Shown: positions 11,451-29,598, counted from the stretch's first letter. The stretch is DNA of 32,000 nt from Promethearchaeia archaeon (GCA_046497275.1 JAWOFX010000134.1:1-32000); one strand, 5' to 3'. Notes: generated by a model from the letters alone, not told the origin. A program made the numbers and translations.

Positions 11451-11504
11451 ATACCCATAATTAAACTTTTAGAATAAAACTTCCCTATTAAATTACTATT
11501 CATT

Positions 11505-12848: not shown

Positions 12849-12866
12849 AAAAAGAGGTAGATAGAT

Positions 12867-13859
12867 TTGAATGAGTTTGTAAAACCGACGGTAGTAAGCT
12901 CAAAATGCATTGAATTTGAGTATTGTCGTTATAATGCGAATATTATAAGTAGTGATGTAGTAAAAGAGATGAAGAGTTTTGTAAACTTTATCCCTGTGTG
13001 TCCAGAAGTTGAAATCGGGTTGGGTGTTCCAAGAGATCCAATTCGGATTATTCAAGAGGATGATTCTTTAACATTAATGCAAAGTTCCACGGGAAGAGAT
13101 GTGACATCCTCAATGATTAATTTTGCGGAAAATTTCTTAGATTCTCTGGATTATGTAGATGGATTTATTTTGAAATATAAATCACCGTCTTGTGGCACTA
13201 AACACACTCCATATTTGGCAAGCATCCAAAAAGGGGCAGCGAAATTAGGAATGGGTCCTGGTTTGTTCGGAAAAGTAGTAATGGAAAGATTTCCAAATTT
13301 ACCTATTGAAAATGAAGGGAGACTGAAAAATTTCAGAATACGAGAATATTTTTTAACTAAATTATACACAATTGCTAGGTTTAGAGAAGTCAAGAATTCT
13401 GAAAAAATGCGAAGATTAGTTGACTTTCAGGCAAACAATAAATTTCTTTTCATGGCATATAATCAGGCAGAGATGAGAGAAATGGGTCGTATAGTCGCAA
13501 ATCAAGAAAAACAATCTTTCTCAACACTCATAACAAAATATGAATCTCATCTTCTCAAACTTTTAGCTTATCCACCAAAATTTACTTCTCACATAAATGT
13601 GTTGATGCATATGTTAGGTTATTTCTCAGATGACCTTACAAAAGATGAGAAGGCATATTTTCTTGATGAATTGGAAAAATATCGAGCAGGATGGATCCCA
13701 TTATTCGTTATGAGAAGTCTACTGAAATCTTGGATAGTAAGATTTAATCAGCCCTATTTAAAAACTCAGACCTATTTCGAAATCTTTCCGGAAGAGCTCA
13801 TGAGATTTGATTTAAAAGATACTTGGCGGGGGAGAAGTTATTGGGAGAAACCAAAATGA
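12867..13859 (+). CDS. rudS: DUF523 (TudS thiouracil desulfidase)-DUF1722 (YbgA) fusion, RudS-like tRNA 4-thiouridine desulfidase; TTG start
   Basis: SSKC...CRYN, PVCPEVEIGLGVPRDPIR and KSPSCG supply the three TudS [4Fe-4S] Cys; the DUF1722 half has HINVLMHMLGYF and YLKTQTYF. AGAGGT SD lies upstream. Confidence 0.85.
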   Translation: MNEFVKPTVVSSKCIEFEYCRYNANIISSDVVKEMKSFVNFIPVCPEVEIGLGVPRDPIRIIQEDDSLTLMQSSTGRDVTSSMINFAENFLDSLDYVDGFILKYKSPSCGTKHTPYLASIQKGAAKLGMGPGLFGKVVMERFPNLPIENEGRLKNFRIREYFLTKLYTIARFREVKNSEKMRRLVDFQANNKFLFMAYNQAEMREMGRIVANQEKQSFSTLITKYESHLLKLLAYPPKFTSHINVLMHMLGYFSDDLTKDEKAYFLDELEKYRAGWIPLFVMRSLLKSWIVRFNQPYLKTQTYFEIFPEELMRFDLKDTWRGRSYWEKPK

Positions 13860-14548
13860 AATTAATTGGTCTCATTGGAGGTATGAGTTGGGAAAATACT
13901 ATTGACTACTACAGAGTAATTAATGAAATAGTTAATGAAAGATTAGGAGATTGGAATTCAGCAAAAATAATACTCTATTCAGTTAATTTTCAAGAAATTT
14001 TACCGCTTCAAAATAGTGATAAATGGGATATAATTACTGAAGAGATGATTGAAATCTGCAAAAAACTTGAATTGATAGGATGCAAAGCTATTGTAATTTG
14101 TTCAAATACGATGCATAAGATCGCCGATCAAATTGAATCACAGATTTCAATTCCCATCATTCATGTCGTTGATGAGACCTCAAAAGCAATAAAAAAGAAG
14201 AACATTAATAAAGTAGGGTTATTAGGCACTAGATTTACCATGGAAGGAGGCTTTTATGTTAGAAGACTAGAAGATAGGCACAATCTCTCTGTATTACTCC
14301 CAAAAAAGATGGAAAGAGACTACATTCACAATGCGATTTATACTGAATTTGCTAAAGGTATATTTAAGAATAAAACTAAGGAAAAATTTTTAGAAATTAT
14401 ACATGAACTAATAAATAATGGGGCAAAGGGAATAATCCTTGGCTGTACAGAGATTCCCTTAGTTATTAAGCCCAAGGATGTGAAAATTCCTTTATTTGAT
14501 ACTCTTAAAATCCACCTTCTGGGTGCTGTTGATTACATGCTAAATTAA
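13856..14548 (+). CDS. Aspartate/glutamate racemase family protein (YgeA/RacX-like)
   Basis: MKLIGLIGGMSWENTIDYY, CSNTMH, GLLGTRFTM, ILGCTEIPL. Start moved from 13823 to the ATG at 13856, which forms an ATGA overlap with the upstream stop. Confidence 0.93.
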   Translation: MKLIGLIGGMSWENTIDYYRVINEIVNERLGDWNSAKIILYSVNFQEILPLQNSDKWDIITEEMIEICKKLELIGCKAIVICSNTMHKIADQIESQISIPIIHVVDETSKAIKKKNINKVGLLGTRFTMEGGFYVRRLEDRHNLSVLLPKKMERDYIHNAIYTEFAKGIFKNKTKEKFLEIIHELINNGAKGIILGCTEIPLVIKPKDVKIPLFDTLKIHLLGAVDYMLN

Positions 14549-15306: not shown

Positions 15307-15990
15307 TTAGATAAACTCAAGAGAAAATTCTACAATATCATTTTCGAAATCCATTTTTTCAATCTGAGCCCTAACCTTCAAATTTAGCTTTTTTTGGATA
15401 GATTTTTCAATAACGCCCATCATAATATAAAAATGAATTTGCATAAATCTCCCAAGTTCTTTTATATTACTCAGACGATATATGGCTCTCTTCTTATGCT
15501 CATCTAATTTAGTAATAACATTTATTTTATTTCTATAGACAAATTGAACGAATGGAATCATGCTTCCAAAATAAGTTAAAAATTTATCCACGGACTTTCC
15601 GTTGTTTTTTGGGAGAACTTCTGCGGGTACTTTCGAACCGTAAGGAAAATCCATATAATCAGCTATTTTTTTTCCTATCATTTTTAATTTTTCTTTATCT
15701 TCAATGAACTGGTCTAACCCATTCAACAACCCCTCAAAATACGAAAAGACCATTTCTCTGGGAATTAACTGGCTTTTGGAACTATAATAGAGTTTATACG
15801 CACCAATTTCTTTGAAAAATACTTCTTGCCGTTCTAACAAAATCGCTATATATTTTCCAGCAGTAACGCGAGAGGTATTTATACCCTTTGCGATATCAGT
15901 GATGGTTACCCCTGAAGGATTATGATCAATGAAGGCGATAATTTCCTCTCTATACTCCTCAGCAGACTTTTTGTTCTTTGATTTTTTCAT
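15307..15990 (-). CDS. Winged-HTH regulator with C-terminal V4R/H-NOX-like alpha/beta domain (putative)
   Basis: N-terminal HTH GVTITDIAKGINTSRVTAGKYIAIL. The C-terminal GKKIA...YRLSN...HFYIMMGVIE...VEFSLEF resembles the V4R-like fold (by eye). Confidence 0.65.
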   Translation of the reverse strand: MKKSKNKKSAEEYREEIIAFIDHNPSGVTITDIAKGINTSRVTAGKYIAILLERQEVFFKEIGAYKLYYSSKSQLIPREMVFSYFEGLLNGLDQFIEDKEKLKMIGKKIADYMDFPYGSKVPAEVLPKNNGKSVDKFLTYFGSMIPFVQFVYRNKINVITKLDEHKKRAIYRLSNIKELGRFMQIHFYIMMGVIEKSIQKKLNLKVRAQIEKMDFENDIVEFSLEFI

Positions 15991-16025
15991 TTTAAAGTAG
16001 TTTATTTTTTTAATTAAAAATAATC

Positions 16026-17540
16026 TTAATTGTACGCATCTCTTTCTGGATACCGTGGATATAATCTAATTATTTCTCTTAACATTCGATCAGTCAATTC
16101 CTTTCTAAGATTTTCATCATCCCATAAATTATTCATTTCATCGGGATCTTCCTTCAGATTATAAATATCTCCAAACTCAGGTAAGCTTTCATATATTGTA
16201 TACCTAAAAGTTTCAGTAACGAGGGTGCGTAATCTCATAATCTTATCTTTGGCTATCTCCTCATCATGTTCTATTAAAATTTGGTCGCGAATTTTTTTAT
16301 CTGGATTCTCTAAAACTTCGGTAAAATCATACCCTTGCATTCGTTTTGGATGATATTTTTCTCTGATTCCTAACATATTTAAGATTGTTTTTGGCAGATC
16401 AATTGTTGAAATGAGTGAATTTGAAACCTTATTTACCGATTTACCAGGAACTTTCCATAAAAGTGGTATATTAATTAAATTATTGTAATGTGCGGGACCT
16501 TTCAATATTAAACCATGATCTCCACATAAATCCGCATGATCACTTGTGAAGATAATCATTGTATTTTCAAAAAGTCCTAATTCATTTAATTTTTCCAATA
16601 TCGCTCCGACACCATCATCAATCATGGAAATAGATCCATATGTTAATGCGGTAAATTTTTTAGCAGTTTTTTCATCAACTTTTTGAGGTAATAGATGTCT
16701 AAACCGAGCATCCTTTATATGTTGACCCAAAAATGGATGTTCAAGCAAATTTTCACCGTCTTTGAAACTAGGTGGTAATATGATATCTTCAGGTGAGTAA
16801 AGATCCTTATATTTTCCCGGAGGACAGACCGGATGATGTGGATCATTATAAGAACAATGCAAAAAGAAGGGTTTATCTCCATACTCTCCTTCTGAATATC
16901 TCTCAAAAAACGCAAGAGTTTGTTCGGTTATATAATGAGTAGGGTAAAGCTCCTCAGGCAACTCAGTCTCATAATAATTTTCATTTATAGCCAGAAATCG
17001 GTTTTTTAACTTATCTATATTTTCATAATTTTGCTCTTTTAGCCATTCAAAATAATGCCCTCCCATCACATCTCCATGTCCAACTGTTAATAAAACCTCA
17101 TCAAATCCATAATAAGGGGTCGGAAATGGATTTGGAATTTGTCCCATCATCCATGCGGAGATGTCTTCCAGAGAAGATACATTTCTACTAAAGGGATGAG
17201 AAAAAAAATTGAAATGGGTTTTCCCAATCGAAATTGTATGGTATCCTTTCTCTCTTAAGCTGTCTGCTATCGTTTTTTCTTCTGGATTTAAATTAATTCC
17301 ATTTGATCTGGTTCCATGAACACTTGGATAAGAACCTGTGAAAAAATTTGCTCTATTCGGCATGCAAATCGGAGTATTGCAATAATAATTCGTAAATCTA
17401 ACTCCATCCTCACCGATTTTATCAATATTTGGCGTCTTGAGAACTCGATTCCCATAACAACTTAAATGATCTGTTCTTTGCTGATCGGTAATTATAAACA
17501 ATACATTGATCTTTTTGCTCATTTTTGAATCATTTTCCAT
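16026..17540 (-). CDS. Formylglycine-dependent (Cys-type) sulfatase, paralog A
   Basis: NVLFIITDQQR, YCNTPICMPNRA (CxPxR), IGKTH, SYNDPHHP, FTSDHAD, YNLKEDPDEMNNLW. Confidence 0.93.
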   Translation of the reverse strand: MENDSKMSKKINVLFIITDQQRTDHLSCYGNRVLKTPNIDKIGEDGVRFTNYYCNTPICMPNRANFFTGSYPSVHGTRSNGINLNPEEKTIADSLREKGYHTISIGKTHFNFFSHPFSRNVSSLEDISAWMMGQIPNPFPTPYYGFDEVLLTVGHGDVMGGHYFEWLKEQNYENIDKLKNRFLAINENYYETELPEELYPTHYITEQTLAFFERYSEGEYGDKPFFLHCSYNDPHHPVCPPGKYKDLYSPEDIILPPSFKDGENLLEHPFLGQHIKDARFRHLLPQKVDEKTAKKFTALTYGSISMIDDGVGAILEKLNELGLFENTMIIFTSDHADLCGDHGLILKGPAHYNNLINIPLLWKVPGKSVNKVSNSLISTIDLPKTILNMLGIREKYHPKRMQGYDFTEVLENPDKKIRDQILIEHDEEIAKDKIMRLRTLVTETFRYTIYESLPEFGDIYNLKEDPDEMNNLWDDENLRKELTDRMLREIIRLYPRYPERDAYN

Positions 17541-17580
17541 TTATTGATTGATTTATTTTTAGAATAATTTTTATTATGAT

Positions 17581-18726
17581 CTATACTTCATTATCAGCCT
17601 TACTAAAGAATTCTTCTTCTGTTGGAGGGTAATATATCTCTACTTCACCTTCTTTATCGATCTTTTTTACGTATTCTCTTCCCTCCTCATCAATAAAGAC
17701 TTTTCCAGAAGTTTTTAATAATTTTAACAATTCGACTCTCTTTTTTGGATCAGCAACGCATATAAAATTACAATTTCCGCATCGAGGATTAGTATCTTTC
17801 AAAGGTCTTTCTGCCACATTTTCTGTGGAACCTACTTTCCCGTATGATTTAAGTATTTCCCTATTAAATTTCTTCAGATTTTCTGGAGTATTTTCATCTA
17901 ACAGGATTTTTCTCATTATTTTTTTAACAAGCATAGGATCATCTTTCCATTCTTGATTACTATATTCTTTCAAACAGATATGATCCGCACTCCAAGTGCT
18001 CCAATCTCCATCCTCTGATAAACCTGTCAATCCAGCACATCCAATAGCACATTTAGAATAAATCCCTCGTTTTGCATATACTTCTTTTTTTCCTCCAATA
18101 ATAACTTCTTGAGTTTCCTCTTCCTGTTTCTTATCAAAAAACCCAGTTGTACACGCTTGATAACATATCATACATTTATTACAGTGATTTTCTTCTGCCA
18201 TTGGATCTGGTTCCAAACGTGCTGTTGTTAAGACTCCTCCGAGATATAACGAGCCACCATATTCTTCAGTTATTAAATTCCCTGACCATCCTATATGTCC
18301 CAATCCTGCTGCAACTGCGCCGTATCTTAATGAAAAATCAGGGTATGACTTATCGTCCTTAAAAATATTCGAATAACCTCCCTTTTTTCTATATTTGCCA
18401 TTTGGAATAACCGCAAATGCTTTAAAGTTAGTATTCTCTTCAATAAATTCTTTAATTTTAACAGCTGTTTTCCATGCGGTAGTATAAGCAAAATGTTGGA
18501 ATTTTTTAAGACTCATTCTTTCTCTCTTGGCAAAATAATTTTCTAATGCTTCAATGGGATTGGGATATGCCCATATTATACAACTTTTTGCATCTGGTAA
18601 AGAATATTCCATATCTGCGGAAGGAGGAGCATCTTTTAACCTTTCTCTATTACCTACACCAACTAGTTTTGCGCCTGAATCTAAAACTATTTTCTTAATC
18701 TCTTCTTTCAATTCATTTAAATTCAT
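17581..18726 (-). CDS. Cobalamin/Fe-S reductive dehalogenase-epoxyqueuosine reductase superfamily protein with long insertion
   Basis: SGAKLVGV, LRYGAVAAGLGHIGWSGNLITEEYGGSLYLGGVLTTARLEPD, CNKCMICYQAC, KC and a distal CGNCNFIC; no Tat motif. Confidence 0.8.
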   Translation of the reverse strand: MNLNELKEEIKKIVLDSGAKLVGVGNRERLKDAPPSADMEYSLPDAKSCIIWAYPNPIEALENYFAKRERMSLKKFQHFAYTTAWKTAVKIKEFIEENTNFKAFAVIPNGKYRKKGGYSNIFKDDKSYPDFSLRYGAVAAGLGHIGWSGNLITEEYGGSLYLGGVLTTARLEPDPMAEENHCNKCMICYQACTTGFFDKKQEEETQEVIIGGKKEVYAKRGIYSKCAIGCAGLTGLSEDGDWSTWSADHICLKEYSNQEWKDDPMLVKKIMRKILLDENTPENLKKFNREILKSYGKVGSTENVAERPLKDTNPRCGNCNFICVADPKKRVELLKLLKTSGKVFIDEEGREYVKKIDKEGEVEIYYPPTEEEFFSKADNEV

Positions 18727-18744
18727 ATTAATTTATTTAACATA

Positions 18745-19671
18745 TTATTTTGGTTCGAGATGAAATTTCATTCTATCCTTCCCTAAGATGATCTCTCCAT
18801 CGAAAACTTCCTTAACTCCATTTAAATACATTTTTTCTGCCTTCTCATTGGGTAGATATGGAGTGATATGAACAAATACTAATTTTTTTGCATTTGCGTC
18901 TTTTGCTAATTCTCCTGCTTTTACTGGATTCATATGATAATTTTGAATATCAGTTAAGATCTTTGCGTATCTATCAAATTTAAGTTTCTTTGCCCCCGAA
19001 ACTATATTATTGAGCATTTTATAAGAAATAGCTTCACTAAAAAGGATGTCAGCATCTTGACAATGGTTTGCTAAATTTTCTGTTTTTACTGTATCCCCCG
19101 TGATCGCGATAACATTCCCTTTATATTCTATTCTATACCCAAATGCAGGTTCAATAGGTGAGTGATCGACTAAAAAAGCAAATACTTTTAATTTATTTCT
19201 TTCAAAACATAGTTTTCTTTCATCTTTATTCTCTATTAAAATTGGCTTGCTTATCATTTTACCATTTTCTAGTGAAAGAATCTCTAATCCATGATGTGCT
19301 ATTCTATATCCTGTATCTAACTCATATGCCATTTCGAATCCTTTAACTACTCTATCTACTCCTTTAGGACCATATACTTCCAATGCTTTTTCTCTTCCAT
19401 TTACCCATGAAAGCATATTTGCTTCTCCAAGGTCACCTATATGATCAGAGTGGAAATGAGTAAGGAATATTTTACTTAGTTTTCCTGCGGGAAGTCTCAA
19501 TACATCAACATTTCTATATGAACCCGGTCCCACATCAAAAAGAAGGAATTCTCCGTCTGCTATTATAGCAATACTAGAGGCTACTCTTTTATCATTATTT
19601 ATGGGACCTCCAGACCCCAACAAAAACACATGAAGTTTTCCGTCCATAAGAATTTTATCTTGACTTATCAT
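18745..19671 (-). CDS. RNase Z/ElaC-like metallo-beta-lactamase (arylsulfohydrolase AtsA-like subgroup possible)
   Basis: LLGSGGP, LFDVGPG, THFHSDHIGDL (HxHxDH), VDHSP, TGDT, YH, HI. Confidence 0.85.
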   Translation of the reverse strand: MISQDKILMDGKLHVFLLGSGGPINNDKRVASSIAIIADGEFLLFDVGPGSYRNVDVLRLPAGKLSKIFLTHFHSDHIGDLGEANMLSWVNGREKALEVYGPKGVDRVVKGFEMAYELDTGYRIAHHGLEILSLENGKMISKPILIENKDERKLCFERNKLKVFAFLVDHSPIEPAFGYRIEYKGNVIAITGDTVKTENLANHCQDADILFSEAISYKMLNNIVSGAKKLKFDRYAKILTDIQNYHMNPVKAGELAKDANAKKLVFVHITPYLPNEKAEKMYLNGVKEVFDGEIILGKDRMKFHLEPK

Positions 19672-19684
19672 CTCTTCTTATCTC

Positions 19685-20533
19685 TTATTCTTTTTTTTCC
19701 TCTACCAATTTTCTATCAATCAATTCTTTCATATATTTAAATCCTGGAGTTAAATTTTCTGTTAAATTTAGTGGGATCATTGATTTAATTGGAAAGCCAA
19801 GACCTTGCCTCCCTCCTGTTTTAAACAGATTTTGAAGTATATAAAAGATATGATCGGCGGGCATTCCAATTCCAATCTCATGATCTTGAATTCCAGCAAA
19901 TGATCTATCGCCTGATCCGGGAATAACAATTTGGGCTTTTCGAGTGAGAAACGGCATTAAACTTCCTTTTCCACAAGATTCTCCAAAACCTTCAAAACTT
20001 GAATTTATACTATATTTTTTTTTATGTTCAAAACAGAGAGCATGAATTATGTGAGTTATTTGTGCTCCATTCCCAAACACTAAAATAGTATCAGGAATGA
20101 GGGGTGATTTATGTAATGGATATGAAATCAATCCGCAATATCCAAGTTCCATGATATTCTTAAAATTACTTGAATATAATTTTTTAGCTCTTCTAATCTC
20201 TGCTTTTTCATCCTTATGCCATCCTTGACGGACTTGGCTTTCAATGAATTCCTCTTCTGAGATCTTTACCCAACCATGGGCAACCGTAGAAGGTGTACAA
20301 AAATTATCCGCTGCGGTAATGGCGTAATTGTTTCCAAATCTTCGAGACATATAGAATGCTTGGCATATACTCATTCTTTTATCTCTCTTAGAAGGTTGAA
20401 TTGCCTCTTTGGGTATTTCCGACTCATCTTTAATGTATTTTATTCCAATTGGATAACTTTGAAAATGAAGTTCATCGTAAAGCTCTTGACCTGCTTTTTG
20501 GAACTCCTCTAAATTCTTATTTTTACCTGACAT
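19685..20533 (-). CDS. DUF169 (COG2043) family protein, paralog 1
   Basis: YPIGIKYI, SICQAFYMSRR, DNFC, PDTILVFGNGAQI, GESCG, PGSGDR. Confidence 0.85.
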   Translation of the reverse strand: MSGKNKNLEEFQKAGQELYDELHFQSYPIGIKYIKDESEIPKEAIQPSKRDKRMSICQAFYMSRRFGNNYAITAADNFCTPSTVAHGWVKISEEEFIESQVRQGWHKDEKAEIRRAKKLYSSNFKNIMELGYCGLISYPLHKSPLIPDTILVFGNGAQITHIIHALCFEHKKKYSINSSFEGFGESCGKGSLMPFLTRKAQIVIPGSGDRSFAGIQDHEIGIGMPADHIFYILQNLFKTGGRQGLGFPIKSMIPLNLTENLTPGFKYMKELIDRKLVEEKKE

Positions 20534-20545
20534 TTCTAATTAATC

Positions 20546-21373
20546 TCAATTATCTTTTTTTATTCTTTTTCTTAAATATGGCCATACACCAGGTTCATTA
20601 GGACTTCCAAATATATCTAATGGACCCAATGAGGCGTTTAAATTTGGAATCCCAAAGGGTTTGGGATTGATCTTATTACCGGCTAAAAATAAATTATCAT
20701 TAACTTCTTTTAACTTAGATTCTGGAATAGAAAAAATCATCTCGAAATCTTGTACTCCCGCGAGAACGCGATCTCCCATACCCGGAGCTACAACTTGACA
20801 TTGATTTGTTGTAAAAGTTCTAATTATGCCCTCTTTACAAGAACTTTCCATTCCATTGAAATAACTTGTTATATAATCACCATTATAAGTAGCTGATAGG
20901 ATTAGATGGGATAATATTAACGGCGTACAATAAATCATTATCACATCGGGAATTATAATAGATGCGTGTAGAGGAGAAACAACTAAACCCTTGAACTCTC
21001 CAAATTCAAGCGTAGCATCACATTCTCTTGATCCTTTTTCTGCTACCATATTTTTTTTATATCCTGCTTTTTTTTCCCATGCTTCAAACACGACATTTGG
21101 ATCATCCACTTTTTCAAAGCCAAAATTACGAATAGAAATTGGTTTACACACAATATCTTCTCCTTTTAAAAAGAATGAAAATCCTGAACGACGACACCAT
21201 GTGTAACTTAAACAAGCGGGAATTTCTCTTCCAAATACATCGAGAGGTCTTAAGGCATTGGATGAGACTTCTTCATTTTCTTTAATCAGTTTAACTGCGA
21301 TCGGATAAGTCTGAAGTTTTAATTTATCAATTAGTTTTTGTCCTATTTTCTTATAGGTTTCTAAATGCTCCAT
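20546..21373 (-). CDS. DUF169 (COG2043) family protein, paralog 2
   Basis: YPIAVKLI, PACLSYTWCRR, DIVC, PDVIMIYCTP, ESSCKEG, PGMGDR. Confidence 0.85.
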   Translation of the reverse strand: MEHLETYKKIGQKLIDKLKLQTYPIAVKLIKENEEVSSNALRPLDVFGREIPACLSYTWCRRSGFSFFLKGEDIVCKPISIRNFGFEKVDDPNVVFEAWEKKAGYKKNMVAEKGSRECDATLEFGEFKGLVVSPLHASIIIPDVIMIYCTPLILSHLILSATYNGDYITSYFNGMESSCKEGIIRTFTTNQCQVVAPGMGDRVLAGVQDFEMIFSIPESKLKEVNDNLFLAGNKINPKPFGIPNLNASLGPLDIFGSPNEPGVWPYLRKRIKKDN

Positions 21374-21392
21374 TTCTATTCCTCCGAACTTT

Positions 21393-22667
21393 TTATTTTT
21401 TTTGAGATTTAATCCTCGATTTAATCTGTTTAGCTCCGTTATTTATAATATTACGAACGATAAATGAGGGTTCTTCTTTCATTTTCTTGTTTAAAATATC
21501 ATATTTAAGTTTTAACGCTTCCAATGATTTGTCTTCCCCTAAAGAATCCTCTCCTTGAATAATAACATCCAGCATATGAAGTGCTAGTTGATATTCCTGA
21601 TTATCATAAAGTTTTTTTGCATGGTTGAGATATTTTTCAGGTCTATTTATTTTCAAAAATTCTTGAGCGATTTTATGTGATTTCGCTGGAAAAAGGTCAG
21701 TTGGATTTCCCGTATCATACCAACCGTGATATAATCTATATACTGCATGTATGGCAAAACGATAGCTGCCATAAAGAGGCTTGAGATATTCATGATTCTT
21801 GAACTTATCAGGATATATTTCTAGCATTTCATGGAATATTTGTTCAAACCATTTTCCTTCATTCAATCGTTTAACAACTTCGTCATGAACAAAATGCATA
21901 GCTTCAGCGGTAATTTCTAAAACATCCCTTACTTTATCTTTTCCCTCTATCATTTTCCCATGACCTGGGATAATATATTTTGCATCTTTTTCCATCATAT
22001 GTTCCATTGCCATTGCCCATCCTTTCGGATATCGTTGCACTTTATAAGGATTTCCAACATTTGGATATGAGGAAATCATCAGATCTCCACTACAAATTAA
22101 CTCCTTCTCTGGAACCCATAACCAACTGGAATCGTCTGTCTCTCCAATATCATGATTAACTTCAAACTCTATTCCTCCAAATTCAAACACAAATGGTTCT
22201 TTACCATCGAGGATTATTGTTGGATATAAAACTTCATGGGGAGATATTACCTCATCATCCTTTCCCATAACGGAACCAAATTGCTGAGCATTTAGCCATT
22301 TATGATATCCATCAAGCATCTGATATTTCTTAAATCTTTTAACTACATTTTCATGCGCAATTATTTCCGGCATTTCCCATCCTTTCTCTTTAATTTCTGA
22401 AATAAATGGCTCAAACCCATAAGAATGGTCGAAATGACCATGACTATAAATAATGTACTTTATAGGTTTTTCAGTAATGCTTCTAATAGTCTTAAAATTG
22501 CGGGGACCGAACTGCTTTAATCCAATATCAAACATTACCAATCCATCGTCCGTTTCTATAATCCCAACATTTCCAAATGACGGGATCAAATGAACGGTAT
22601 TATCTTGTACACTCTTGGGAGGATACATACCGAGGAAAAACTTAATATCATCTTGAGAATAACTCAT
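21393..22667 (-). CDS. Alkylsulfatase (SdsA/BDS1)-like metallo-beta-lactamase with dimerization domain
   Basis: FGNVGIIETDDGLVMFD, YSHGHFDHSYG, HDIGETDD, YPNVGNP, IIPGHG, KPLYG...AVYRLYHGWYDTGNP...LFP; no C-terminal SCP2 domain. Confidence 0.87.
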   Translation of the reverse strand: MSYSQDDIKFFLGMYPPKSVQDNTVHLIPSFGNVGIIETDDGLVMFDIGLKQFGPRNFKTIRSITEKPIKYIIYSHGHFDHSYGFEPFISEIKEKGWEMPEIIAHENVVKRFKKYQMLDGYHKWLNAQQFGSVMGKDDEVISPHEVLYPTIILDGKEPFVFEFGGIEFEVNHDIGETDDSSWLWVPEKELICSGDLMISSYPNVGNPYKVQRYPKGWAMAMEHMMEKDAKYIIPGHGKMIEGKDKVRDVLEITAEAMHFVHDEVVKRLNEGKWFEQIFHEMLEIYPDKFKNHEYLKPLYGSYRFAIHAVYRLYHGWYDTGNPTDLFPAKSHKIAQEFLKINRPEKYLNHAKKLYDNQEYQLALHMLDVIIQGEDSLGEDKSLEALKLKYDILNKKMKEEPSFIVRNIINNGAKQIKSRIKSQKK

Positions 22668-22731
22668 TTTTTATCTTCTTTATTTATATTATGTAATTTT
22701 TTAAATTTGAAACAATTAATTTTAAAGATTT

Positions 22732-23595
22732 TTATTTTTTATATCCTTGCGGACAGATTTTTAAACAATAGGAACAGTAATTATTATCTAAAATACTTTG
22801 TATACATTTCGATCTGTCTATATGGGTAATATGTGGAGAATTATCGCGTTCGATGGGGTCCTTGTAGGCCGCATTTCCTTTACATTCTCTCACACAAGCA
22901 CCGCACCCCTCACAAAATTCTTTTAATGCATCTAGATTTCTTTTTTCAGATTCAGGTATCTCAGCATCAGTCGTTATAATGCTCCATCTTTGACGGGGTC
23001 CAAACTCAGGTGTAATGATTAATCCATTCTGTCCTTTAATGCCGAGTCCTGCTGCGACTGCGTGTGGACCATATAATAGTTTTCCACCAAATGGATGGTG
23101 CGCTTCGCTTTTATATCCCTTACTTTTTAAATACTCCGCCAGTCCAATAGTCACATCTCCCAATACTTTATAGACTCGAAATACTTCAATTTCACAAATT
23201 GCGCTTGGGGCTGTTTTAATTTTATCCCATTTCATCTCCATTCCCAACACAATCGCATTTTTTCCATATACTTTTAAATTATGAAAAATAAATCTCTCGT
23301 CTACTGGAGTATAACCAATAAAATCTACATTTAATTCTCTAGCTTTGGCTTCAAAATCTTTCCAAAATTGAGGAGTTGTTTGGGTTTTAGTATTATTTTC
23401 ATTCCCATATTTAGTCTTTCGAGCATCTTGAAATCCTTTAAACGTCCCTCTAATATATTTACTAAATTCTTTTGCCAAATCACGATCAATGGTTTCCGCT
23501 GGACCTGCACTCATATTAAAAAGCTCTTTAGGGACAATAAACTTGAGATCTTCATTCTTTCCTACATACGTCGGTTCTATTTCTATTTTTGACAT
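22732..23595 (-). CDS. Cytoplasmic reductive dehalogenase (RdhA)-like cobalamin/2x[4Fe-4S] protein
   Basis: KARELNVDFIGYT, NAIVLGMEM, AVAAGLGIKGQNGLIITPEFGPRQRWSIITTD, FCEGCGACVREC, IDRSKC-x9-CSYCLKICP; no Tat signal and no RdhB neighbour. Confidence 0.82.
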   Translation of the reverse strand: MSKIEIEPTYVGKNEDLKFIVPKELFNMSAGPAETIDRDLAKEFSKYIRGTFKGFQDARKTKYGNENNTKTQTTPQFWKDFEAKARELNVDFIGYTPVDERFIFHNLKVYGKNAIVLGMEMKWDKIKTAPSAICEIEVFRVYKVLGDVTIGLAEYLKSKGYKSEAHHPFGGKLLYGPHAVAAGLGIKGQNGLIITPEFGPRQRWSIITTDAEIPESEKRNLDALKEFCEGCGACVRECKGNAAYKDPIERDNSPHITHIDRSKCIQSILDNNYCSYCLKICPQGYKK

Positions 23596-23686
23596 TTCTT
23601 AATCAAATCAATTGTTCTTTTATTTTCAATAAAACTTTATTTTTGGAACTTTGTTAAATAATATTTTATATGTCAATCTTCGTGAT

Positions 23687-24799
23687 TTATTCTCGATTTT
23701 CTTCATATATTGTATTTTGTAGGATGGCGGGATTTTTAAATAATTTATTTCGATCTTCTCGATGAAGAGTAATAGCTTTTGTAGGACATGTAACCGCACA
23801 AACTCCACATCCATAACATTTATTTGGATTAACATCGGCTTTCTCATCGATTAATGTGACTGCGTCAAAAGGACATCTCTCTACACATAATCCACATCCT
23901 TTACAGAGACCTTTATCCACTTTTGATACATAATTTGATTTTGCTAAACAGTTCTCATTTTTATCTTCAAATCTCGTCATACCCCTCACGAAGGCACAAC
24001 AGCACTCACAACAGCAACATAAAACCTGGTGATTAATATTATCATGATTTTCCGTAGTAAAAACCAATCCTGCTTTTGCAAACTTATCAACTAACTCCTT
24101 CGCCTCTTTAATTGATAATTCTCTGCCCTCTCCTCGTCTAATAAAATATGATCCAAAGAATCCTAATTGAAAACATGAATCCTCTACAGGATATTTTCCT
24201 TTGCATTCTCTTTCGCCAAGAATCTCTTTCCGCTTCCTACAAGGACAATCTGTTATTACGATGGGCTTTTGACAATCCTCTAAGATTCTATGAACTTCCT
24301 CAACGTATAATATTTCTGTTTCATAATTTATTGACTGCTCTACAGGGACTACTCGCATTAATGAGGTGCCTTTATCAGATGTTTCATATCTCTTATAAAA
24401 TTGTTCATCTATAAAGAATCTATTATATAACTCTGCCCCCTTCTCTCCCAACCGTTCTAAGGCTTTGGAATATTTATATCCTACATTGAATAAATGCGCG
24501 ATGGTGAGAAAATACGAATATCCTCCAATATCTTGAATTATCCCCTTATCTGCCATATCTTCTAAGATTTTTTCAACTTCTTCTTTTTCTTTTCCAATTT
24601 TTTTCGCTAAAATTCTTACAGATTGTGGTTTAACTCGAAGATATTGTGCGATCTCAGCCTCTTCAGGAGTAAATAGTAATTCGATAAATTCTCTGAATGC
24701 TTTAGATACCTTTCCATCCGTAATAGGGATATCTTGTGGATATTCTCGCATATTTTCTATTATTTTTTCATAAGGGTTTTTATCTTGTGAGTTTGTCAT
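23687..24799 (-). CDS. Multi-cluster iron-sulfur protein (N-terminal HTH-like region, Cys-rich core, C-terminal 2x[4Fe-4S])
   Basis: FTPEEAEIAQYL, DCPCR...C...C, LCCCCECCCAF, CKGCGLCVERCP, CYGCGVCAVTCP. Confidence 0.88.
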   Translation of the reverse strand: MTNSQDKNPYEKIIENMREYPQDIPITDGKVSKAFREFIELLFTPEEAEIAQYLRVKPQSVRILAKKIGKEKEEVEKILEDMADKGIIQDIGGYSYFLTIAHLFNVGYKYSKALERLGEKGAELYNRFFIDEQFYKRYETSDKGTSLMRVVPVEQSINYETEILYVEEVHRILEDCQKPIVITDCPCRKRKEILGERECKGKYPVEDSCFQLGFFGSYFIRRGEGRELSIKEAKELVDKFAKAGLVFTTENHDNINHQVLCCCCECCCAFVRGMTRFEDKNENCLAKSNYVSKVDKGLCKGCGLCVERCPFDAVTLIDEKADVNPNKCYGCGVCAVTCPTKAITLHREDRNKLFKNPAILQNTIYEENRE

Positions 24800-24898
24800 T
24801 TTTCATAACTTAATTACTTTTTTTCAATTTAGAAGTGTTCTATATTACTTTCTTCTTGAACTATTTAAAGATTTACACTGCAGATTTACAATAGTGAT

Positions 24899-24941
24899 AA
24901 GATTTATAAATAAAAAAATTCAATATTAATTTATAAATCTT
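24899..24941. promoter_or_regulatory. 13-17-13 inverted repeat forming two face-to-face TATA-like boxes in the divergent promoter
   Basis: AAGATTTATAAAT (24899-24911) and ATTTATAAATCTT (24929-24941) are exact reverse complements; each contains TTTATAAA preceded by purines. Confidence 0.55.
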
Positions 24942-25050
24942 TTGTTTAGTATGAAAAATTAAAAACCTAAAGTGGCTTAAAAATATTATAACGTATACAA
25001 ATTTAATATTAAACTAGTATTTGTATAAAAAATTCCATGAGATTAAAAAA

Positions 25051-25902
25051 ATGTCAGAAATTATAGAAGAATTTAGAACAACGGGACAAAAATTCTATAA
25101 TAAACTCAGATTATTAACTTATCCAGTTGCGATAAAATTTATCAAGGATTACGAGGAGATTCCAGAAGAAGCCCACAGACCTTCCAAGATTGGACAAACA
25201 ATTACTTTATGTCAAGCCTTCACGATGGCACGACGCTGGGGAGAGCATGTTGCTATGGCCTATGAAGATAATGCATGCATAACTAGTTCTCTTGTTCATC
25301 AATGGAAAAAGGTTCCAATTAAAGATATAATTGAATCCCAGATAAAATCTGGCTATCATAAAGATGCAAAAGCTGAAATAGCGGTTCAATCTCAATATAG
25401 TGCTTTAGCAAAGAAGGAAAATTATCTCAAAATCAAGGATCATGTAGGATTCATCGTCTCTCCTCTCACTAAAACGATTGTGGAACCAGATGTTATTCTA
25501 GTTTATGGGGATCCCGCTCAGATGACGCATATCGTACAAGCATTAAGCTATGAGGGAAAATACCTTGTAAATTCTTCATTTATTGGATTTGGAGAGTCAT
25601 GTCTTAAAGGTGTCCTAATACCATATATTACAGATAAGCCGGAGGTTGTATTGCCTGGTACTGGAGATAGAACACTCGCATTAACAAAGGAAGAGGAGAT
25701 GGCCATAGGTATGCCAGCCAAACTCATTTCATATGTCAATGAAAATCTTTTCAAATCAGGAGAATCATTCAATATGGGAGAACCATCGAGATTTTTTGTT
25801 GGAAATATCCCCGAAGGGTTTGGACCACCAGCATGGAGCTTTTTAAAGAGAAAGGTAGAAAACCAAGAAAAGAAAAATGCAAAAAAAGAAAACTCAAGCT
25901 AA
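25051..25902 (+). CDS. DUF169 (COG2043) family protein, paralog 3
   Basis: YPVAIKFI, TLCQAFTMARR, DNAC, PDVILVYGDPAQM, GESCL, PGTGDR. Start moved to ATG 25051 so the N-terminus aligns with the paralogs. Confidence 0.85.
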   Translation: MSEIIEEFRTTGQKFYNKLRLLTYPVAIKFIKDYEEIPEEAHRPSKIGQTITLCQAFTMARRWGEHVAMAYEDNACITSSLVHQWKKVPIKDIIESQIKSGYHKDAKAEIAVQSQYSALAKKENYLKIKDHVGFIVSPLTKTIVEPDVILVYGDPAQMTHIVQALSYEGKYLVNSSFIGFGESCLKGVLIPYITDKPEVVLPGTGDRTLALTKEEEMAIGMPAKLISYVNENLFKSGESFNMGEPSRFFVGNIPEGFGPPAWSFLKRKVENQEKKNAKKENSS

Positions 25903-25960
25903 TTTTTCATACAAATCAAATTATATTTAATTAAAAAATTGAATAAGATGAATAAAAAAA

Positions 25961-27241
25961 ATGGAAAACAATAGTTCAGAGCCCGTGAGTAAAAATTATT
26001 TTAGATATCTCGTATTTGTTTTAGTTTTAGTCCAATTAATCGATTCCTACAGCACTTCTTTCCCAACATTAGTCCCAGACAGCATAATAAATGAATTTCT
26101 CTCTGGGTTTACCAATCCTGAATCTATATTTGCTTTTGTAATTGCATTAGCATCGGTTGGTATGTATTTTTGTGCATTTAACACCTATTTATCTGATAGA
26201 ATAGGAAGAAAAACCATGTTAGCAGTGACAGTCTTTGGAATGGTACTTATAGCAATTTTAATTAACTTTTCCACTAGCATCATTGATTTTACTATATATC
26301 TATTCTTTTTATGGTTTTTTACACGATCTGACGTATGGATGATATATATAGGAGAAGAAGCTCCCAAAGAAAAAAGAGCTTTTTGGACTAATATTATCTT
26401 AATTTTTGGATTAGCCGGGGCAATTTTAGCCCCAATTGTCCGATCTAGATTCATTACTGAAACAACTCAAAACTGGAGAGGTATAACGTGGTTGGTTATA
26501 ATAATAGGTGTTCCTTTAGGGCTATTAATTCTATTTACTCTAAAGGAGCCGGTTATCTACACTGATATGAAAAAAGATTTAGATTCAAAGCAGAGAATAA
26601 ATACTCTAAAAGAAAATATTTCCGGTATTTTTAAATCTTCCAATGGAACACAAATAAAAGTCTGTTTAATTATAAGTTTTATTTTCGGGATGAATTCAAT
26701 CTTCAGAAATTTAGTAGTACGAGCTGTTTCCTTAAGTCCATATTTAACCCAAGATCAAATTAGCTTAATGATGTTAATTGGAGTTGTTGCTGTATACATG
26801 GCGGTTATTTTGATCGGAACTCTTGCAGATAAGTTTGGTCGCCTTCCATTACTCTATTTCTTTTCAGTCATGATTCCTATTGCGAGAGTTATGTTTGCAT
26901 TAGTGGCATTTCAACCGCTTTTAACTTTTCCCCTGACCGTGATATTTACGAGCATGTCAGAATTTGGCTATTGGGGCGGATGGATTACTCTTAGTATTGT
27001 TATACTGGAACTTGTTCCAACAGAAGCTCGTGGGAGTGGAAGTGGATTAAAATCGTTCTTTGGTGCATTTGGAATAACAGTCGGCTTTCTCTCGACGAGT
27101 GTATTTACTTTATTTTTTGATCTAAGTATTTCATTCGTTATTCTGGGCCTATTTACAATCATTGCTATCCCACTAATATATAAATATTTGAAGGAAACGA
27201 AAAAGGTTGATATGAGAGAGATTTCCAAGTTAAAAACATAA
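25961..27241 (+). CDS. Major facilitator superfamily transporter
   Basis: About 12 TM; motif A twice (SDRIGRK, ADKFGRL); EEAPKEKRA; ELVPTEARGSGSG. Confidence 0.93.
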   Translation: MENNSSEPVSKNYFRYLVFVLVLVQLIDSYSTSFPTLVPDSIINEFLSGFTNPESIFAFVIALASVGMYFCAFNTYLSDRIGRKTMLAVTVFGMVLIAILINFSTSIIDFTIYLFFLWFFTRSDVWMIYIGEEAPKEKRAFWTNIILIFGLAGAILAPIVRSRFITETTQNWRGITWLVIIIGVPLGLLILFTLKEPVIYTDMKKDLDSKQRINTLKENISGIFKSSNGTQIKVCLIISFIFGMNSIFRNLVVRAVSLSPYLTQDQISLMMLIGVVAVYMAVILIGTLADKFGRLPLLYFFSVMIPIARVMFALVAFQPLLTFPLTVIFTSMSEFGYWGGWITLSIVILELVPTEARGSGSGLKSFFGAFGITVGFLSTSVFTLFFDLSISFVILGLFTIIAIPLIYKYLKETKKVDMREISKLKT

Positions 27242-27255
27242 AAAGTTGATTTAAC

Positions 27256-28764
27256 ATGAGTGAAAGGATGAATGTATTATTTATAATTACAGACCAACAG
27301 AGAGCAGATCACTTAGGATGCTACGGAAACCCAATATTAAATACTCCTAATATTGATAAGATCGCGGATGAGGGAGTACGCTTTACAAATGCGTATTGTG
27401 CAAATCCTATGTGCATGCCAAATCGTGCAACGTTGTTAACGGGTTTATTTCCTAATGCACATGGAGTCAGGAGTAACGGAATAAATCTTCCTGAAGATAT
27501 TCCTACTATTGCTGAAACTTTACGAGAAAGAGGATGGTATACGAAGTCTATAGGAAAAACCCATTATCAATTTAATTTTCCTCCTTATAAACGATCTTCA
27601 GAATCAGCGGAATTGATCTCTGAATGGATTCGACCTAAAACTGTGGAGAAAAAGAAAAAACGGTTTGAATCTCCTTATTATGGATTTGAAGATGTCGAAA
27701 TTACACTAGGTCATGGAGATTTAGTCGCTGGGCATTATCTTGATTGGTTAGAAGAACGATCTCCGAAACACGCTCTTGAGATTAAGAAACGATTTACTAA
27801 ATTTTTTGATAATCTTATGTATGAAACATCATTGCCAATAGAATTATATCCGACTACTTATGTAAAAGAGAGAACCATCAATTTCTTTGAAAAATATAAA
27901 AAAGGAGATTTTGAAGATAAACCATTCTTTCTTCATTGTTCTTTTCCTGATCCGCATCATCCTGTCTGTCCCCCCGGAAATTATTATGATATGTTTGATC
28001 AAGATAAAATTGAATTACCAGAAAGTTTCGATGATGCTGAGAATCTTTACGACCATCATTTTCTGGGAAGATATTTAAAAGACCCAATATTTCGTGGGGC
28101 TTTACTACGAGAATCCTCTGAAGAAGATGCTAAGAAATTCCTTGCACTTACATACGGTTCAATTTCTATGATCGATCATAGTGTAGGGGAGATATTAGCC
28201 TCCTTAAGTAAATTGGGATTAGAAGATAATACTATGGTGATTTATACGAGCGATCATGGTGATTTAGCGGGAGATCATGGACTATTGCTTAAAGGCCCAT
28301 CACCCTATAAAGGTATACTTAATGTTCCATTGATTTGGAAAGTGCCAGAGATAACAGAAAAAGGTATTTCGGATTCTTTAATCAGTTCAGTTGATATTCC
28401 AAAAACAATATTGGAATTATTGAACATAAAGGAGCGCCACCAACCACCCGATATGCAGGGTTATGATATGACACCCATTTTACAGAATCCAAACGAGACG
28501 GTTAGAGATTGTTGTTTGATTGAGGAAGACGAGGAAGTAACAAATATTCAAATACGACTACGTCATTTAATCACAGATAAATATAAATTAACGGTTTACG
28601 AGGGATTTGATAAAGGTGACCTTTATGATTTAGAAGCGGATCCGAATGAATTAAATAATTTATGGGATACACAGAAGGAGATACGTAAGGAGTTGGTTTA
28701 TAAGTTATTACAAGAAAATCTAAAAGTGCAAGCAAGATACCCAAAACGAGAATCTCTTACATAG
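27256..28764 (+). CDS. Formylglycine-dependent (Cys-type) sulfatase, paralog B
   Basis: NVLFIITDQQR, YCANPMCMPNRA, IGKTH, SFPDPHHP, YTSDHGD, YDLEADPNELNNLW; colinear with 16026..17540. Confidence 0.93.
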   Translation: MSERMNVLFIITDQQRADHLGCYGNPILNTPNIDKIADEGVRFTNAYCANPMCMPNRATLLTGLFPNAHGVRSNGINLPEDIPTIAETLRERGWYTKSIGKTHYQFNFPPYKRSSESAELISEWIRPKTVEKKKKRFESPYYGFEDVEITLGHGDLVAGHYLDWLEERSPKHALEIKKRFTKFFDNLMYETSLPIELYPTTYVKERTINFFEKYKKGDFEDKPFFLHCSFPDPHHPVCPPGNYYDMFDQDKIELPESFDDAENLYDHHFLGRYLKDPIFRGALLRESSEEDAKKFLALTYGSISMIDHSVGEILASLSKLGLEDNTMVIYTSDHGDLAGDHGLLLKGPSPYKGILNVPLIWKVPEITEKGISDSLISSVDIPKTILELLNIKERHQPPDMQGYDMTPILQNPNETVRDCCLIEEDEEVTNIQIRLRHLITDKYKLTVYEGFDKGDLYDLEADPNELNNLWDTQKEIRKELVYKLLQENLKVQARYPKRESLT

Positions 28765-28884: not shown

Positions 28885-29598
28885 CTACTCTTCCTTAGTA
28901 ATAAAACGCTTCATCCAGTCAGGTAAAGCAAATCCTGCATATACTCCAAATAAACTTGGTATGAAAAATATCAGAGGTAACACCGAAATATTTGTAATTG
29001 AAAAGAAAACTCCTCCCACAGCAAACAATATGACTCCTAGTAATATCATTTTTGCTTTAAATCTAACTTCTGCGCTCGGAGAATCTTTAGATTTATACCA
29101 AATCAAGAATCCTGTTAATAATAAGATAACAAGTCGAATTAAATTGCGAATTCTTAGAAATAAGCCATGGGATGCCATAATCGTTCCACTTATGCTTCCT
29201 ATCAACGGTTGATTAGTAAATAAGAGTACATAAAATAATATTATTAAAATTATGAGATATACTGAATATATCCCAATAATTATTTTCTTTTTGCTTTTAT
29301 AAGTCATGTCTGTAAACGCCAAAAGCCAAAAGAAAATACCAAACGTAAATCCATAACCCAAGATGTAGTATATCTCAAATGGAAGTGCTTGACTAACGAT
29401 TAGAAACGAAATAAACGAAATAGATATAGGTAACCAAGGAAAGGACATGAAAAAGATTGCGATACCCGTGTATAATAAACGCTTATCTTTATATTTATAA
29501 TAATTCCTAAGAATTGATATTCCTATATAGAAGAAAAAAACGTTTATTATTATAGCGACGATTCCATTAAAAAATTCTATAGGTGGTAATGTTGCCAT
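28885..29598 (-). CDS. Uncharacterized ~7-TM membrane protein
   Basis: Seven hydrophobic segments separated by basic loops; no catalytic motif recognised. Confidence 0.75.
   Translation of the reverse strand: MATLPPIEFFNGIVAIIINVFFFYIGISILRNYYKYKDKRLLYTGIAIFFMSFPWLPISISFISFLIVSQALPFEIYYILGYGFTFGIFFWLLAFTDMTYKSKKKIIIGIYSVYLIILIILFYVLLFTNQPLIGSISGTIMASHGLFLRIRNLIRLVILLLTGFLIWYKSKDSPSAEVRFKAKMILLGVILFAVGGVFFSITNISVLPLIFFIPSLFGVYAGFALPDWMKRFITKEE

Follow-up and report, generated by a model that had tools for sequence, protein, structure and literature searches.

A divergent gene island combining sulfatase-type hydrolases, DUF169 proteins and RdhA/QueG-superfamily proteins in a Lokiarchaeia-type archaeon

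The window analyzed here is a 32,000-nucleotide (nt) stretch of DNA at the start of contig C157 (37.4 kb) in a metagenome-assembled genome (MAG) of a Promethearchaeia archaeon, and our subject is a cluster of 12 open reading frames (ORFs) at positions 15307-28764 that encodes sulfatase-type hydrolases, DUF169 proteins and relatives of the cobamide-dependent enzymes RdhA and QueG. The MAG comprises 3.85 Mb, is 98.9% complete and has a GC content of about 32%, and since close homologs of its proteins lie in Promethearchaeota/Lokiarchaeota MAGs, the host is an Asgard archaeon of the Lokiarchaeia type. Among prokaryotes, Asgard archaea are most closely related to eukaryotes, and the substrates that they use in sediments are mostly inferred. 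A previous reading of the sequence alone had described these ORFs as a divergent 12-gene cluster encoding a candidate pathway of desulfation followed by dehalogenation. Loci in other genomes (L) and contigs of the host genome (C) are given by our own numbers where they have to be told apart.

Layout of the island and its hydrolases

All 12 ORFs are present at the coordinates and on the strands that the sequence-only reading had given them, forming two divergent arms of nine minus-strand and three plus-strand genes (Table 1). Counted outwards from the divergent spacer, the gaps between minus-arm genes are 91, 64, 19, 12, 13, 18, 40 and 35 nt; in the plus arm they measure 58 and 14 nt. We assigned domains by Pfam and NCBIfam profile searches of the window proteins. 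The start of the third DUF169 gene is most likely the ATG at 25051, rather than the TTG at 25021 of the listed ORF, because its orthologs are 281-282 amino acids (aa) long.

Table 1. Genes and spacer of the island, by position in the window
Feature	Coordinates	Strand	Basis of the assignment
Winged helix-turn-helix (wHTH)-type putative regulator, 227 aa	15307-15990	-	weak HTH_11
Formylglycine (FGly) sulfatase, Cys-type	16026-17540	-	PF00884 + SGSH_C
QueG-like Fe-S protein, 381 aa	17581-18726	-	RdhA/QueG/CblC fold (model)
Metallo-beta-lactamase (MBL) hydrolase, 308 aa, RNase Z/AtsA branch	18745-19671	-	Lactamase_B_2; 8gyg
DUF169 paralog a, 282 aa	19685-20533	-	PF02596 130.6 bits
DUF169 paralog b, 275 aa	20546-21373	-	PF02596 112 bits
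Alkylsulfatase-like MBL, 424 aa	21393-22667	-	Lactamase_B (PF00753) + Alkyl_sulf_dimr (PF14863)
Compact RdhA-like protein, 287 aa	22732-23595	-	Fer4 domains; PceA/NpRdhA alignments
Poly-Cys Fe-S protein (FeS370), 370 aa	23687-24799	-	Fer4 families
Divergent intergenic region	24800-25050	.	inverted TATA-like boxes
DUF169 paralog c, 283 aa from ATG 25051	25051-25902	+	PF02596 147.6 bits
Major facilitator superfamily (MFS) transporter, 426 aa, putative substrate importer	25961-27241	+	PF07690 (MFS_1) 91.9 bits
FGly sulfatase, Cys-type	27256-28764	+	PF00884 171 bits

The locus encodes four candidate sulfate-ester hydrolases from three mechanistic classes, together with one transporter. As had been proposed, several sulfatase classes are predicted to stand together here, namely two type I FGly enzymes, one type III alkylsulfatase-like MBL and one AtsA/8GYG-like MBL.

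The minus-strand FGly sulfatase scores 154 bits against PF00884, whose cut-off of 25 bits the plus-strand enzyme also exceeds, and 239 bits against the arylsulfatase model PRK13759, under its cut-off of 481. Both carry the formylglycine motif CxPxR, as C59-M-P-N-R63 in the minus-strand enzyme and C53-M-P-N-R57 in the plus-strand one, and both are predicted to be cytoplasmic because the proteins open directly with a conserved core strand (at residue 11 in the minus-strand enzyme), which leaves no room for a signal peptide. The host genome contains about a dozen sulfatase genes and an anaerobic sulfatase-maturating enzyme (anSME; C171:13370-14440) that scores 420 bits against TIGR03942, above the equivalog cut-off of 349, so maturation of the FGly sulfatases appears possible. 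The nearest solved relative of the FGly sulfatases is 4upi, titled 'sulfatase family protein' (E 2.3e-51 for the plus-strand enzyme), followed by sugar sulfatases, including N-acetylglucosamine-6-sulfatase, and by choline and carrageenan sulfatases; phosphonate-monoester hydrolases (PMHs; 2w8s, 4upk) rank lower.

In the 424-aa MBL, a Lactamase_B domain (66.6 bits) is joined to an alkylsulfatase dimerization domain (79.5 bits; cut-off, 26), and the HxHxDH binuclear metal motif is intact (H76-G-H-F-D-H81). Its residues 32-414 align with residues 133-527 of the sec-alkylsulfatase Pisa1 (4av7, E 2.3e-17) and of SdsA1 (2cfu, E 3.6e-15), a similarity confined to the catalytic and dimerization domains, with the alignment stopping near residue 527 of chains of 658-668 residues, and we regard it as a putative type III (alkyl)sulfatase. 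The 308-aa MBL likewise retains its HxHxDH motif (H72-F-H-S-D-H77), and its best solved relative is the MBL arylsulfatase 8gyg (E 1.6e-21), which it matches over its full length (residues 18-305 on 13-304), making it a putative MBL-type arylsulfatase. It reaches 116-130 bits against RNase Z models with cut-offs of 252-293, and since the true RNase Z of the genome is encoded on C136 (306 bits), the 308-aa protein is not the RNase Z of the cell, a tRNase role that the sequence-only reading had named as one way in which it might fail.

A different reading of the same proteins is that the two members of the alkaline phosphatase superfamily are phosphonate or phosphate monoester hydrolases and that the MBLs are phosphodiesterases or nucleases. 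Matches to PF01663 (Phosphodiest) do occur among the profile results for the FGly sulfatases, the PMH model PehA scores 194 bits (under its cut-off of 900), PMH structures are among their solved relatives, and the 308-aa MBL matches cyclic-nucleotide phosphodiesterase and GntH models, as it does RNase Z, below cut-off. However, the best solved relatives are sulfatases for all four hydrolases, and the CxPxR motif together with the anSME, the dimerization domain above its cut-off and the housekeeping RNase Z elsewhere in the genome point the same way. We consider a phosphoester island very improbable.

A third sulfatase of the Cys-type family lies in the same window (4127-5623, minus strand), divergent from an MtaA/CmuA-like methyltransferase of the URO-D family (5859-6959), and a ferredoxin-nitroreductase fusion (3224-4114) stands upstream in this region. 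URO-D relatives also occur near alkylsulfatase-like MBL orthologs in L036-L038, loci of another Asgard family.

Redox proteins and DUF169 proteins

The 287-aa protein aligns with the reductive dehalogenases (RDases) PceA (8q4h, E 1.4e-19) and NpRdhA (4ras, E 9e-14) over the cobamide core and both Fe-S motifs, which read C228xxC231xxC234xxxC238 and C264x9C274xxC277xxxC281P. In a phmmer alignment, counted by hand, Tyr142 and Arg203 fall on Tyr426 and Lys488 of NpRdhA, their counterparts in PceA being Tyr246 and Arg305, and Asn190 lies within a conserved G-x-N-G segment. With 66 bits against TIGR02486, the protein misses the RdhA threshold of 160; the Pfam search returned no PF13486 match, its N terminus has no twin-arginine translocation (Tat) RR motif, and no small RdhB-like membrane ORF adjoins it in the window. 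The genome does contain a PF13486-positive RDase-type gene, on C75, whose product is 33% identical to the 287-aa protein and whose domain composition matches that published for putative Asgard RDases, which an earlier paper put forward for both Loki- and Thorarchaeota (PMC6737245). Orthologs of the 287-aa protein adjoin an aldehyde ferredoxin oxidoreductase (AOR) gene in L002, L006 and L007.

For the 381-aa protein, no Pfam match was obtained, and its scores against the QueG model TIGR00276 (48 bits; cut-off, 200) and the RdhA model TIGR02486 (24 bits) are low; its match to the QueG structure 5d6s (E 1.6e-7) is confined to residues 137-200. An AlphaFold 2 (AF2) model built with 30 family members reached a pLDDT of 90, and in a Foldseek search with this model all 46 matches at E <= 1e-3 were RdhA or QueG structures. 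CblC/MMACHC came next (E 0.008-0.012, probability 0.97-1.00, TM about 0.3-0.4), and nothing else appeared in the top 50. The model places the protein in the RdhA/QueG/CblC-superfamily fold, with a resemblance to RdhA at the level of fold only. Nine Cys are invariant in the family alignment, including C182xxC185xxC188xxxC192 and C316xxC319xxxC323. Archaeal tRNA carries archaeosine and is not known to carry queuosine, and no match at the level of a true QueG was found in the host genome; QueG activity alone, which the sequence-only reading had named as an outcome against it, is not indicated. The earlier designation of both proteins as RdhA-like holds at the level of the superfamily, by the PceA alignment of one and the fold match of the other, and does not hold at the level of families, where both stay under the cut-offs.

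A ferredoxin-like Fe-S partner had also been expected, as had an MFS importer; the island encodes a putative importer (Table 1) and the 370-aa poly-Cys protein. The latter consists of a wHTH-like N terminus, the motifs C185-P-C187 and C261CCCECCC268, and then two CxxCxxCxxxCP motifs (2x[4Fe-4S]). It matches the polyferredoxin MvhB (9sw6_G, 73 bits), the likeness being confined to its C-terminal part, and about 16 Cys are invariant across the alignment of its family. At least 19 ORFs with B12-binding domains are present in the host genome, and neither CobS nor CbiB/CobD was found in the 98.9%-complete MAG. Cobamide enzymes are thus plausible in this host, and the cofactor is probably imported; the genome appears to be that of a heavy cobamide user dependent on uptake.

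Given these proteins, the reaction sequence suggested by the sequence-only reading would be that the cell imports halogenated aryl sulfates, bromophenol sulfates for example, and cleaves off the sulfate, after which both RdhA-family proteins, fed by the polyferredoxin-like protein, remove the halogen reductively. The residues of the 287-aa protein that align with Tyr426/Lys488 of NpRdhA and Arg305 of PceA speak for this hypothesis, as those RdhA enzymes act on or bind ortho-halophenols (by the titles of structures 5m8u and 6zy1), and arylsulfatase-type hydrolases would yield phenols; the published proposal of archaeal RDases cited above is a further point in its favor. However, the 287-aa protein stays below the RdhA threshold and without PF13486, the RDase-type gene that does carry this domain is on C75, orthologs of the 287-aa protein stand beside AOR or SNF2 genes without sulfatases, and the QueG-like family resembles RdhA in fold only. 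We found nothing specific to halogens in the locus, and a bromophenol sulfate or other halogenated substrate, as first suggested, draws no support from it. We regard this specific pathway as improbable.

The three DUF169 proteins (33-43% identical to each other) score 112-148 bits against PF02596, whose cut-off is 27. Three Cys and a PGxGDR motif are near-invariant among 118 diverse representatives of the family. An AF2 model of DUF169c reached a pLDDT of 95 and yielded no match to a solved fold, the best Foldseek hit in the PDB having an E of 0.06 and the best hit of a wide VIA-align search a Z of 4.7 (thiolase-like, under the usual noise level). Its sole match among the Swiss-Prot models of AFDB was MJ0308, itself a DUF169 protein; the missing match is no proof of a new fold. 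In our literature search, no paper mentioning DUF169 assigned it a function.

Orthologs of DUF169a are found in two further kinds of surroundings, some beside hydroxyproline dehydratase, acyl-CoA ligase and tryptophanase-like genes and others beside flavodoxin, QueG-like and AOR genes. In L100-L102, the orthologs (62-68% identical) lie between a trans-4-hydroxy-L-proline dehydratase of the glycyl radical enzyme (GRE) family (1313 bits), an acyl-CoA ligase and a tryptophanase-like lyase, and L102 also has a poly-Cys-like Fe-S gene. We had considered DUF169a as a marker of aromatic or phenolic metabolism and rejected this idea, since the GRE of L100-L102 is the hydroxyproline dehydratase and the lyase is tryptophanase-like (536 bits to a subfamily model), under the equivalog cut-offs of both TnaA and tyrosine phenol-lyase. 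In L103, L107 and L109, DUF169a, a flavodoxin (169 aa) and a QueG-like protein (about 360 aa) form a conserved run, with DUF1848 in all three loci and an AOR (596-598 aa) beside the run in L107 and L109. The host genome also holds a second, divergent pair of DUF169 (270 aa) and MBL (257 aa) genes, 15 nt apart, adjoining an NAD(P)HX repair fusion gene (C180:7600-9200; L193:3609-5210).

Recurrence of the arrangement in other genomes

The loci that we compared were picked by anchor searches in related genomes, so their co-occurrence counts are biased and the genomes are not independent; we read them as recurrence, not as statistics. The full layout was found in same-genus sequences only, on two JGI metagenome contigs and in one same-genus genome (L003, L004 and L008), with proteins 62-90% identical and with such changes as one DUF169 gene fewer, a second MFS gene or a split sulfatase. 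Because the entire layout recurs in these three loci, the arrangement is not due to chance. The MFS gene is kept in L003, L004 (two copies) and L008, and the wHTH orthologs of L003 and L004 are 62-73% identical to the 227-aa protein.

Between the two arms, the spacer (220-250 nt) contains two inverted TTTATAAA(T) TATA-like elements, at 24899-24914 and 24926-24941, that form a 16-nt inverted repeat with 94% complementarity, and in an alignment with L003 and L004 this repeat is the best-conserved block of the spacer. The elements fit back-to-back archaeal TATA boxes, which, we presume, may double as an operator. The candidate regulators are the wHTH gene that ends the minus arm and perhaps the wHTH-like N terminus of the poly-Cys protein. 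The 227-aa wHTH protein has no Cys, a C-terminal domain without a family and a weak HTH_11 match (17.7 bits), and its relatives (31-33% identity) stand beside DUF169 and QueG-like genes in L021, L078, L043 and L110.

Gene order is not unique to this genome, uniqueness being a further outcome that would have spoken against the sequence-only reading, and sulfatase, DUF169 and RdhA/QueG-superfamily genes recur together beyond it. Other genera of the same taxonomic family carry shuffled subsets of four to seven of the nine gene families (L021/L110, L078, L028, L043, L091, L116 and L124). L021/L110 and L078 combine sulfatases, two or three QueG-like genes, a wHTH gene, DUF169 and the alkylsulfatase-like MBL, to which L021/L110 add a 56% identical paralog of the 287-aa protein and two poly-Cys Fe-S genes. 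Five of the families are present in L028 and six in L043; L091 has QueG-like, sulfatase, 308-type MBL and DUF169 genes, and L124 has sulfatase, poly-Cys Fe-S, QueG-like and DUF169 genes. L116 joins a QueG-like gene, a poly-Cys Fe-S gene, a 284-aa Fer4_16 protein, a 287-type protein (64%) and a sulfatase, and triplets of sulfatase, DUF169 and QueG-like genes are found in L093, L094 and L109. FeS370 orthologs with 59-66% identity have sulfatases as immediate neighbors in L112-L114 and are also flanked by them in L116, and poly-Cys-like genes adjoin sulfatases on two further contigs of the host genome itself (C172 and C183). Taken family by family, DUF169a has orthologs (61-84% identity) in 16 of the 68 sampled same-family genomes, those of DUF169b (50-86%) occur in L003, L008, L028, L091, L043 and L124, and the alkylsulfatase-like MBL is present in 55 of the 68, as well as in two other families; a sulfatase lies on the same fetched locus as this MBL in 17 of 43 cases.

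We reached the DUF169 neighborhoods outside Asgard archaea through a scan for the poly-Cys family only, covering one genome per species, which confirmed 385 relatives among at least 598 pattern matches and from which the best 80 loci were kept; the relatives among the matches listed come from Asgard archaea, Desulfobacterota, Chloroflexota and others. On a Desulfosudaceae chromosome (L128), a TetR gene stands beside a run of DUF169 (53%), two QueG-like, C_GCAxxG_C_C and two poly-Cys genes, in this order, and after them come genes for a fumarate-reductase-like flavoprotein and Fe-S subunit. A Proteobacteria MAG with 61% GC (L118) has a poly-Cys gene (60%), two DUF169 genes (51-59%) and a QueG-like gene (30%), and in a Desulfosudis MAG (L117) a poly-Cys gene (57%) is near an MBL and a TRAP solute-binding protein. 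Relatives of the window sulfatases were not detected in these three loci at the tblastn threshold used. On these three contigs, whose GC contents are 50-61%, the poly-Cys and DUF169 proteins share 51-60% identity with their Asgard counterparts. Such high identities across domains suggest horizontal, inter-domain transfer of the redox module, and the trio of DUF169, QueG-like and poly-Cys Fe-S proteins appears, from these comparisons, to be conserved on its own in both Archaea and Bacteria.

This raises the possibility that the trio acts on a substrate of its own and that the sulfatases, MBLs and MFS transporter are an independent scavenging set, co-located with it in a hotspot of accessory genes. 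The trio does occur without sulfatases in L128 and L118 and with flavodoxin and AOR in L103/L107, the alkylsulfatase-like MBL and the sulfatases occur without the trio in L009-L015, and gene order is strongly shuffled between genera. Yet in at least five gene orders from at least three genera, no more than a few kb separate sulfatase, DUF169 and QueG-like genes, and in the minus arm of the island hydrolase and redox genes are intermixed, with gaps of 12-64 nt. We think it unlikely that the two sets are unconnected.

Among the flanking genes, the one next to the plus arm (28885-29598) encodes a 237-aa multi-pass membrane protein without a family match, of which the genome has more than 10 paralogs; the corresponding genes of L003 and L008 also flank the island, and in L110 such a gene adjoins one that is DUF169c-like. 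Beyond the other arm, co-oriented genes at 10986-14548 encode a Staygreen homolog (Mg-dechelatase family, 166 bits), which is unusual in an Asgard archaeon, together with a DNA photolyase, a DUF523/2-thiouracil desulfurase-DUF1722 protein and an Asp/Glu racemase.

A proposed role and comparison with known systems

The gene content of the locus, the family and fold assignments, the active-site motifs and the recurrence of the modules are the observations from which we start. We favor, with a probability of about 0.5, the interpretation that this is a real, lineage-conserved, divergent organosulfate island, in which a layer of hydrolysis would be coupled to a cobamide-type redox module acting on the released aglycone, and which probably lets the cell use natural organosulfates. 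The MFS transporter would import small organosulfates, and the four hydrolases, all predicted to be cytoplasmic, would remove the sulfate, with the two FGly enzymes matured by the anSME. The RdhA-like and QueG-like enzymes would then reduce the released aglycone, cleaving a C-X or C-O leaving group, with electrons arriving via the poly-Cys Fe-S protein, or via flavodoxin in related loci, and with DUF169 as a partner of the reductases. Here the substrates, the binding of cobamide, the path of the electrons, the co-transcription of the genes and the flux between the two layers are all matters that we infer. The chemistry of the superfamily is the Co(I)-driven removal of leaving groups, a halide in RdhA, an epoxide oxygen in QueG and alkyl or cyano groups in CblC, and the redox module could therefore act on a desulfated aglycone; action on the sulfate ester itself seems less likely.

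Several observations weigh against this interpretation. Every hydrolase stays under the curated equivalog cut-offs, the type I sulfatases count PMHs among their relatives, as set out above, and Pfam did not find the SCP2-like C-terminal domain in the alkylsulfatase-like MBL, which ends at residue 424. Most orthologs of this MBL stand alone among housekeeping genes (GluRS, HAD), four orthologs of the QueG-like protein (64-66%, L079-L082) are without cluster neighbors, and about half of the DUF169a orthologs are without sulfatase or QueG-like neighbors, for example beside HypD. Outside the genus, in a Thorarchaeota MAG, a closed genome of Promethearchaeota and one further MAG, orthologs of the 287-aa protein (65-81% identical) adjoin genes for SNF2 helicase, AOR and CCG/Fe-S proteins, and these loci contain neither a sulfatase nor DUF169. 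To these must be added the anchor-based choice of loci, with the bias it brings to the counts. Because the 287-aa orthologs and the alkylsulfatase-like MBL are so often in unrelated contexts, and the trio occurs without sulfatases in bacteria, the single linear 12-gene desulfation-dehalogenation pathway proposed from the sequence alone over-reads what is a modular island.

A bolder version of the organosulfate interpretation, which we offer tentatively and think rather doubtful as a whole, is that the trio is an unrecognized cobamide-dependent reductase system of Asgard archaea, Desulfobacterota and Chloroflexota that in Lokiarchaeia has become wired to three classes of sulfatase. Organosulfates, possibly halogenated, would then serve as carbon source or electron acceptor, and the chemistry might include Co(I) reductive elimination of sulfate.

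All the enzymes belong to known superfamilies; what is undescribed is the recurring combination and three of its families, DUF169, the QueG-like family and the poly-Cys Fe-S family. Our literature search found no paper describing this gene combination, in agreement with the sequence-only reading, which knew of no described system of this kind. The recurring context across domains is the best available lead to the roles of these three families, including a QueG-like family that occurs in organisms without queuosine, and the island provides a concrete hypothesis, testable by cloning, that organosulfates are used in the cytoplasm in connection with reductive chemistry of the B12 type. Action of the reductases on natural products that are halogenated or sulfated would, if borne out, be relevant to the cycling of sulfur and halogens in the sea and would extend the reactions known for the RdhA/QueG superfamily.

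Compared with RdhA (PceA 4uqu/8q4h; the catabolic NpRdhA 4ras), the 287-aa protein shares the cobamide core, both [4Fe-4S] motifs and the aligned Tyr/Asn/Arg residues, and with NpRdhA it also shares a predicted cytoplasmic location, without a Tat signal or RdhB. However, it is about 180-400 residues shorter, falls under the TIGR02486 cut-off, lacks PF13486 and has no fused reductase domain. The 381-aa protein resembles QueG (5d08, 5d6s) in the modeled B12-binding fold and in the segment around the first Fe-S motif, and departs from it in its profile score (48 versus 200 bits), in having no match to the HEAT-like tRNA-binding domain and in a long insertion between the Fe-S motifs.

The hydrolases show a similar mixture of likeness and difference. 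With SdsA1 (2cfu) and Pisa1 (4av7), the 424-aa MBL has in common the HxHxDH motif and the alkylsulfatase dimerization domain, although it is predicted to be cytoplasmic and is without about 100 N-terminal residues and the whole SCP2-like domain, which in SdsA1 and Pisa1 recruits hydrophobic substrates. The 308-aa MBL matches the AtsA-type arylsulfatase 8gyg over its full length and with an intact metal motif, but identity is moderate, and the protein also resembles RNase Z and GntH under their cut-offs.

As systems, the sulfatase clusters of anaerobes, for example the polysaccharide utilization loci of Bacteroides, combine type I FGly sulfatases with anSME, and the Cys-type CxPxR sulfatases of the island would depend on a radical-SAM maturase in the same way. 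Unlike those clusters, the island has no glycoside hydrolases or SusC/D, its enzymes are predicted to be cytoplasmic, and it adds MBL relatives of sulfatases, DUF169 proteins and relatives of cobamide-type reductases. The closest counterparts of its redox trio are the loci of the Desulfobacterota kind (L128, L118), which are bacterial and, in L128, accompanied by TetR, whereas the island is Asgard, carries a wHTH gene and sets the trio among four sulfatase candidates.

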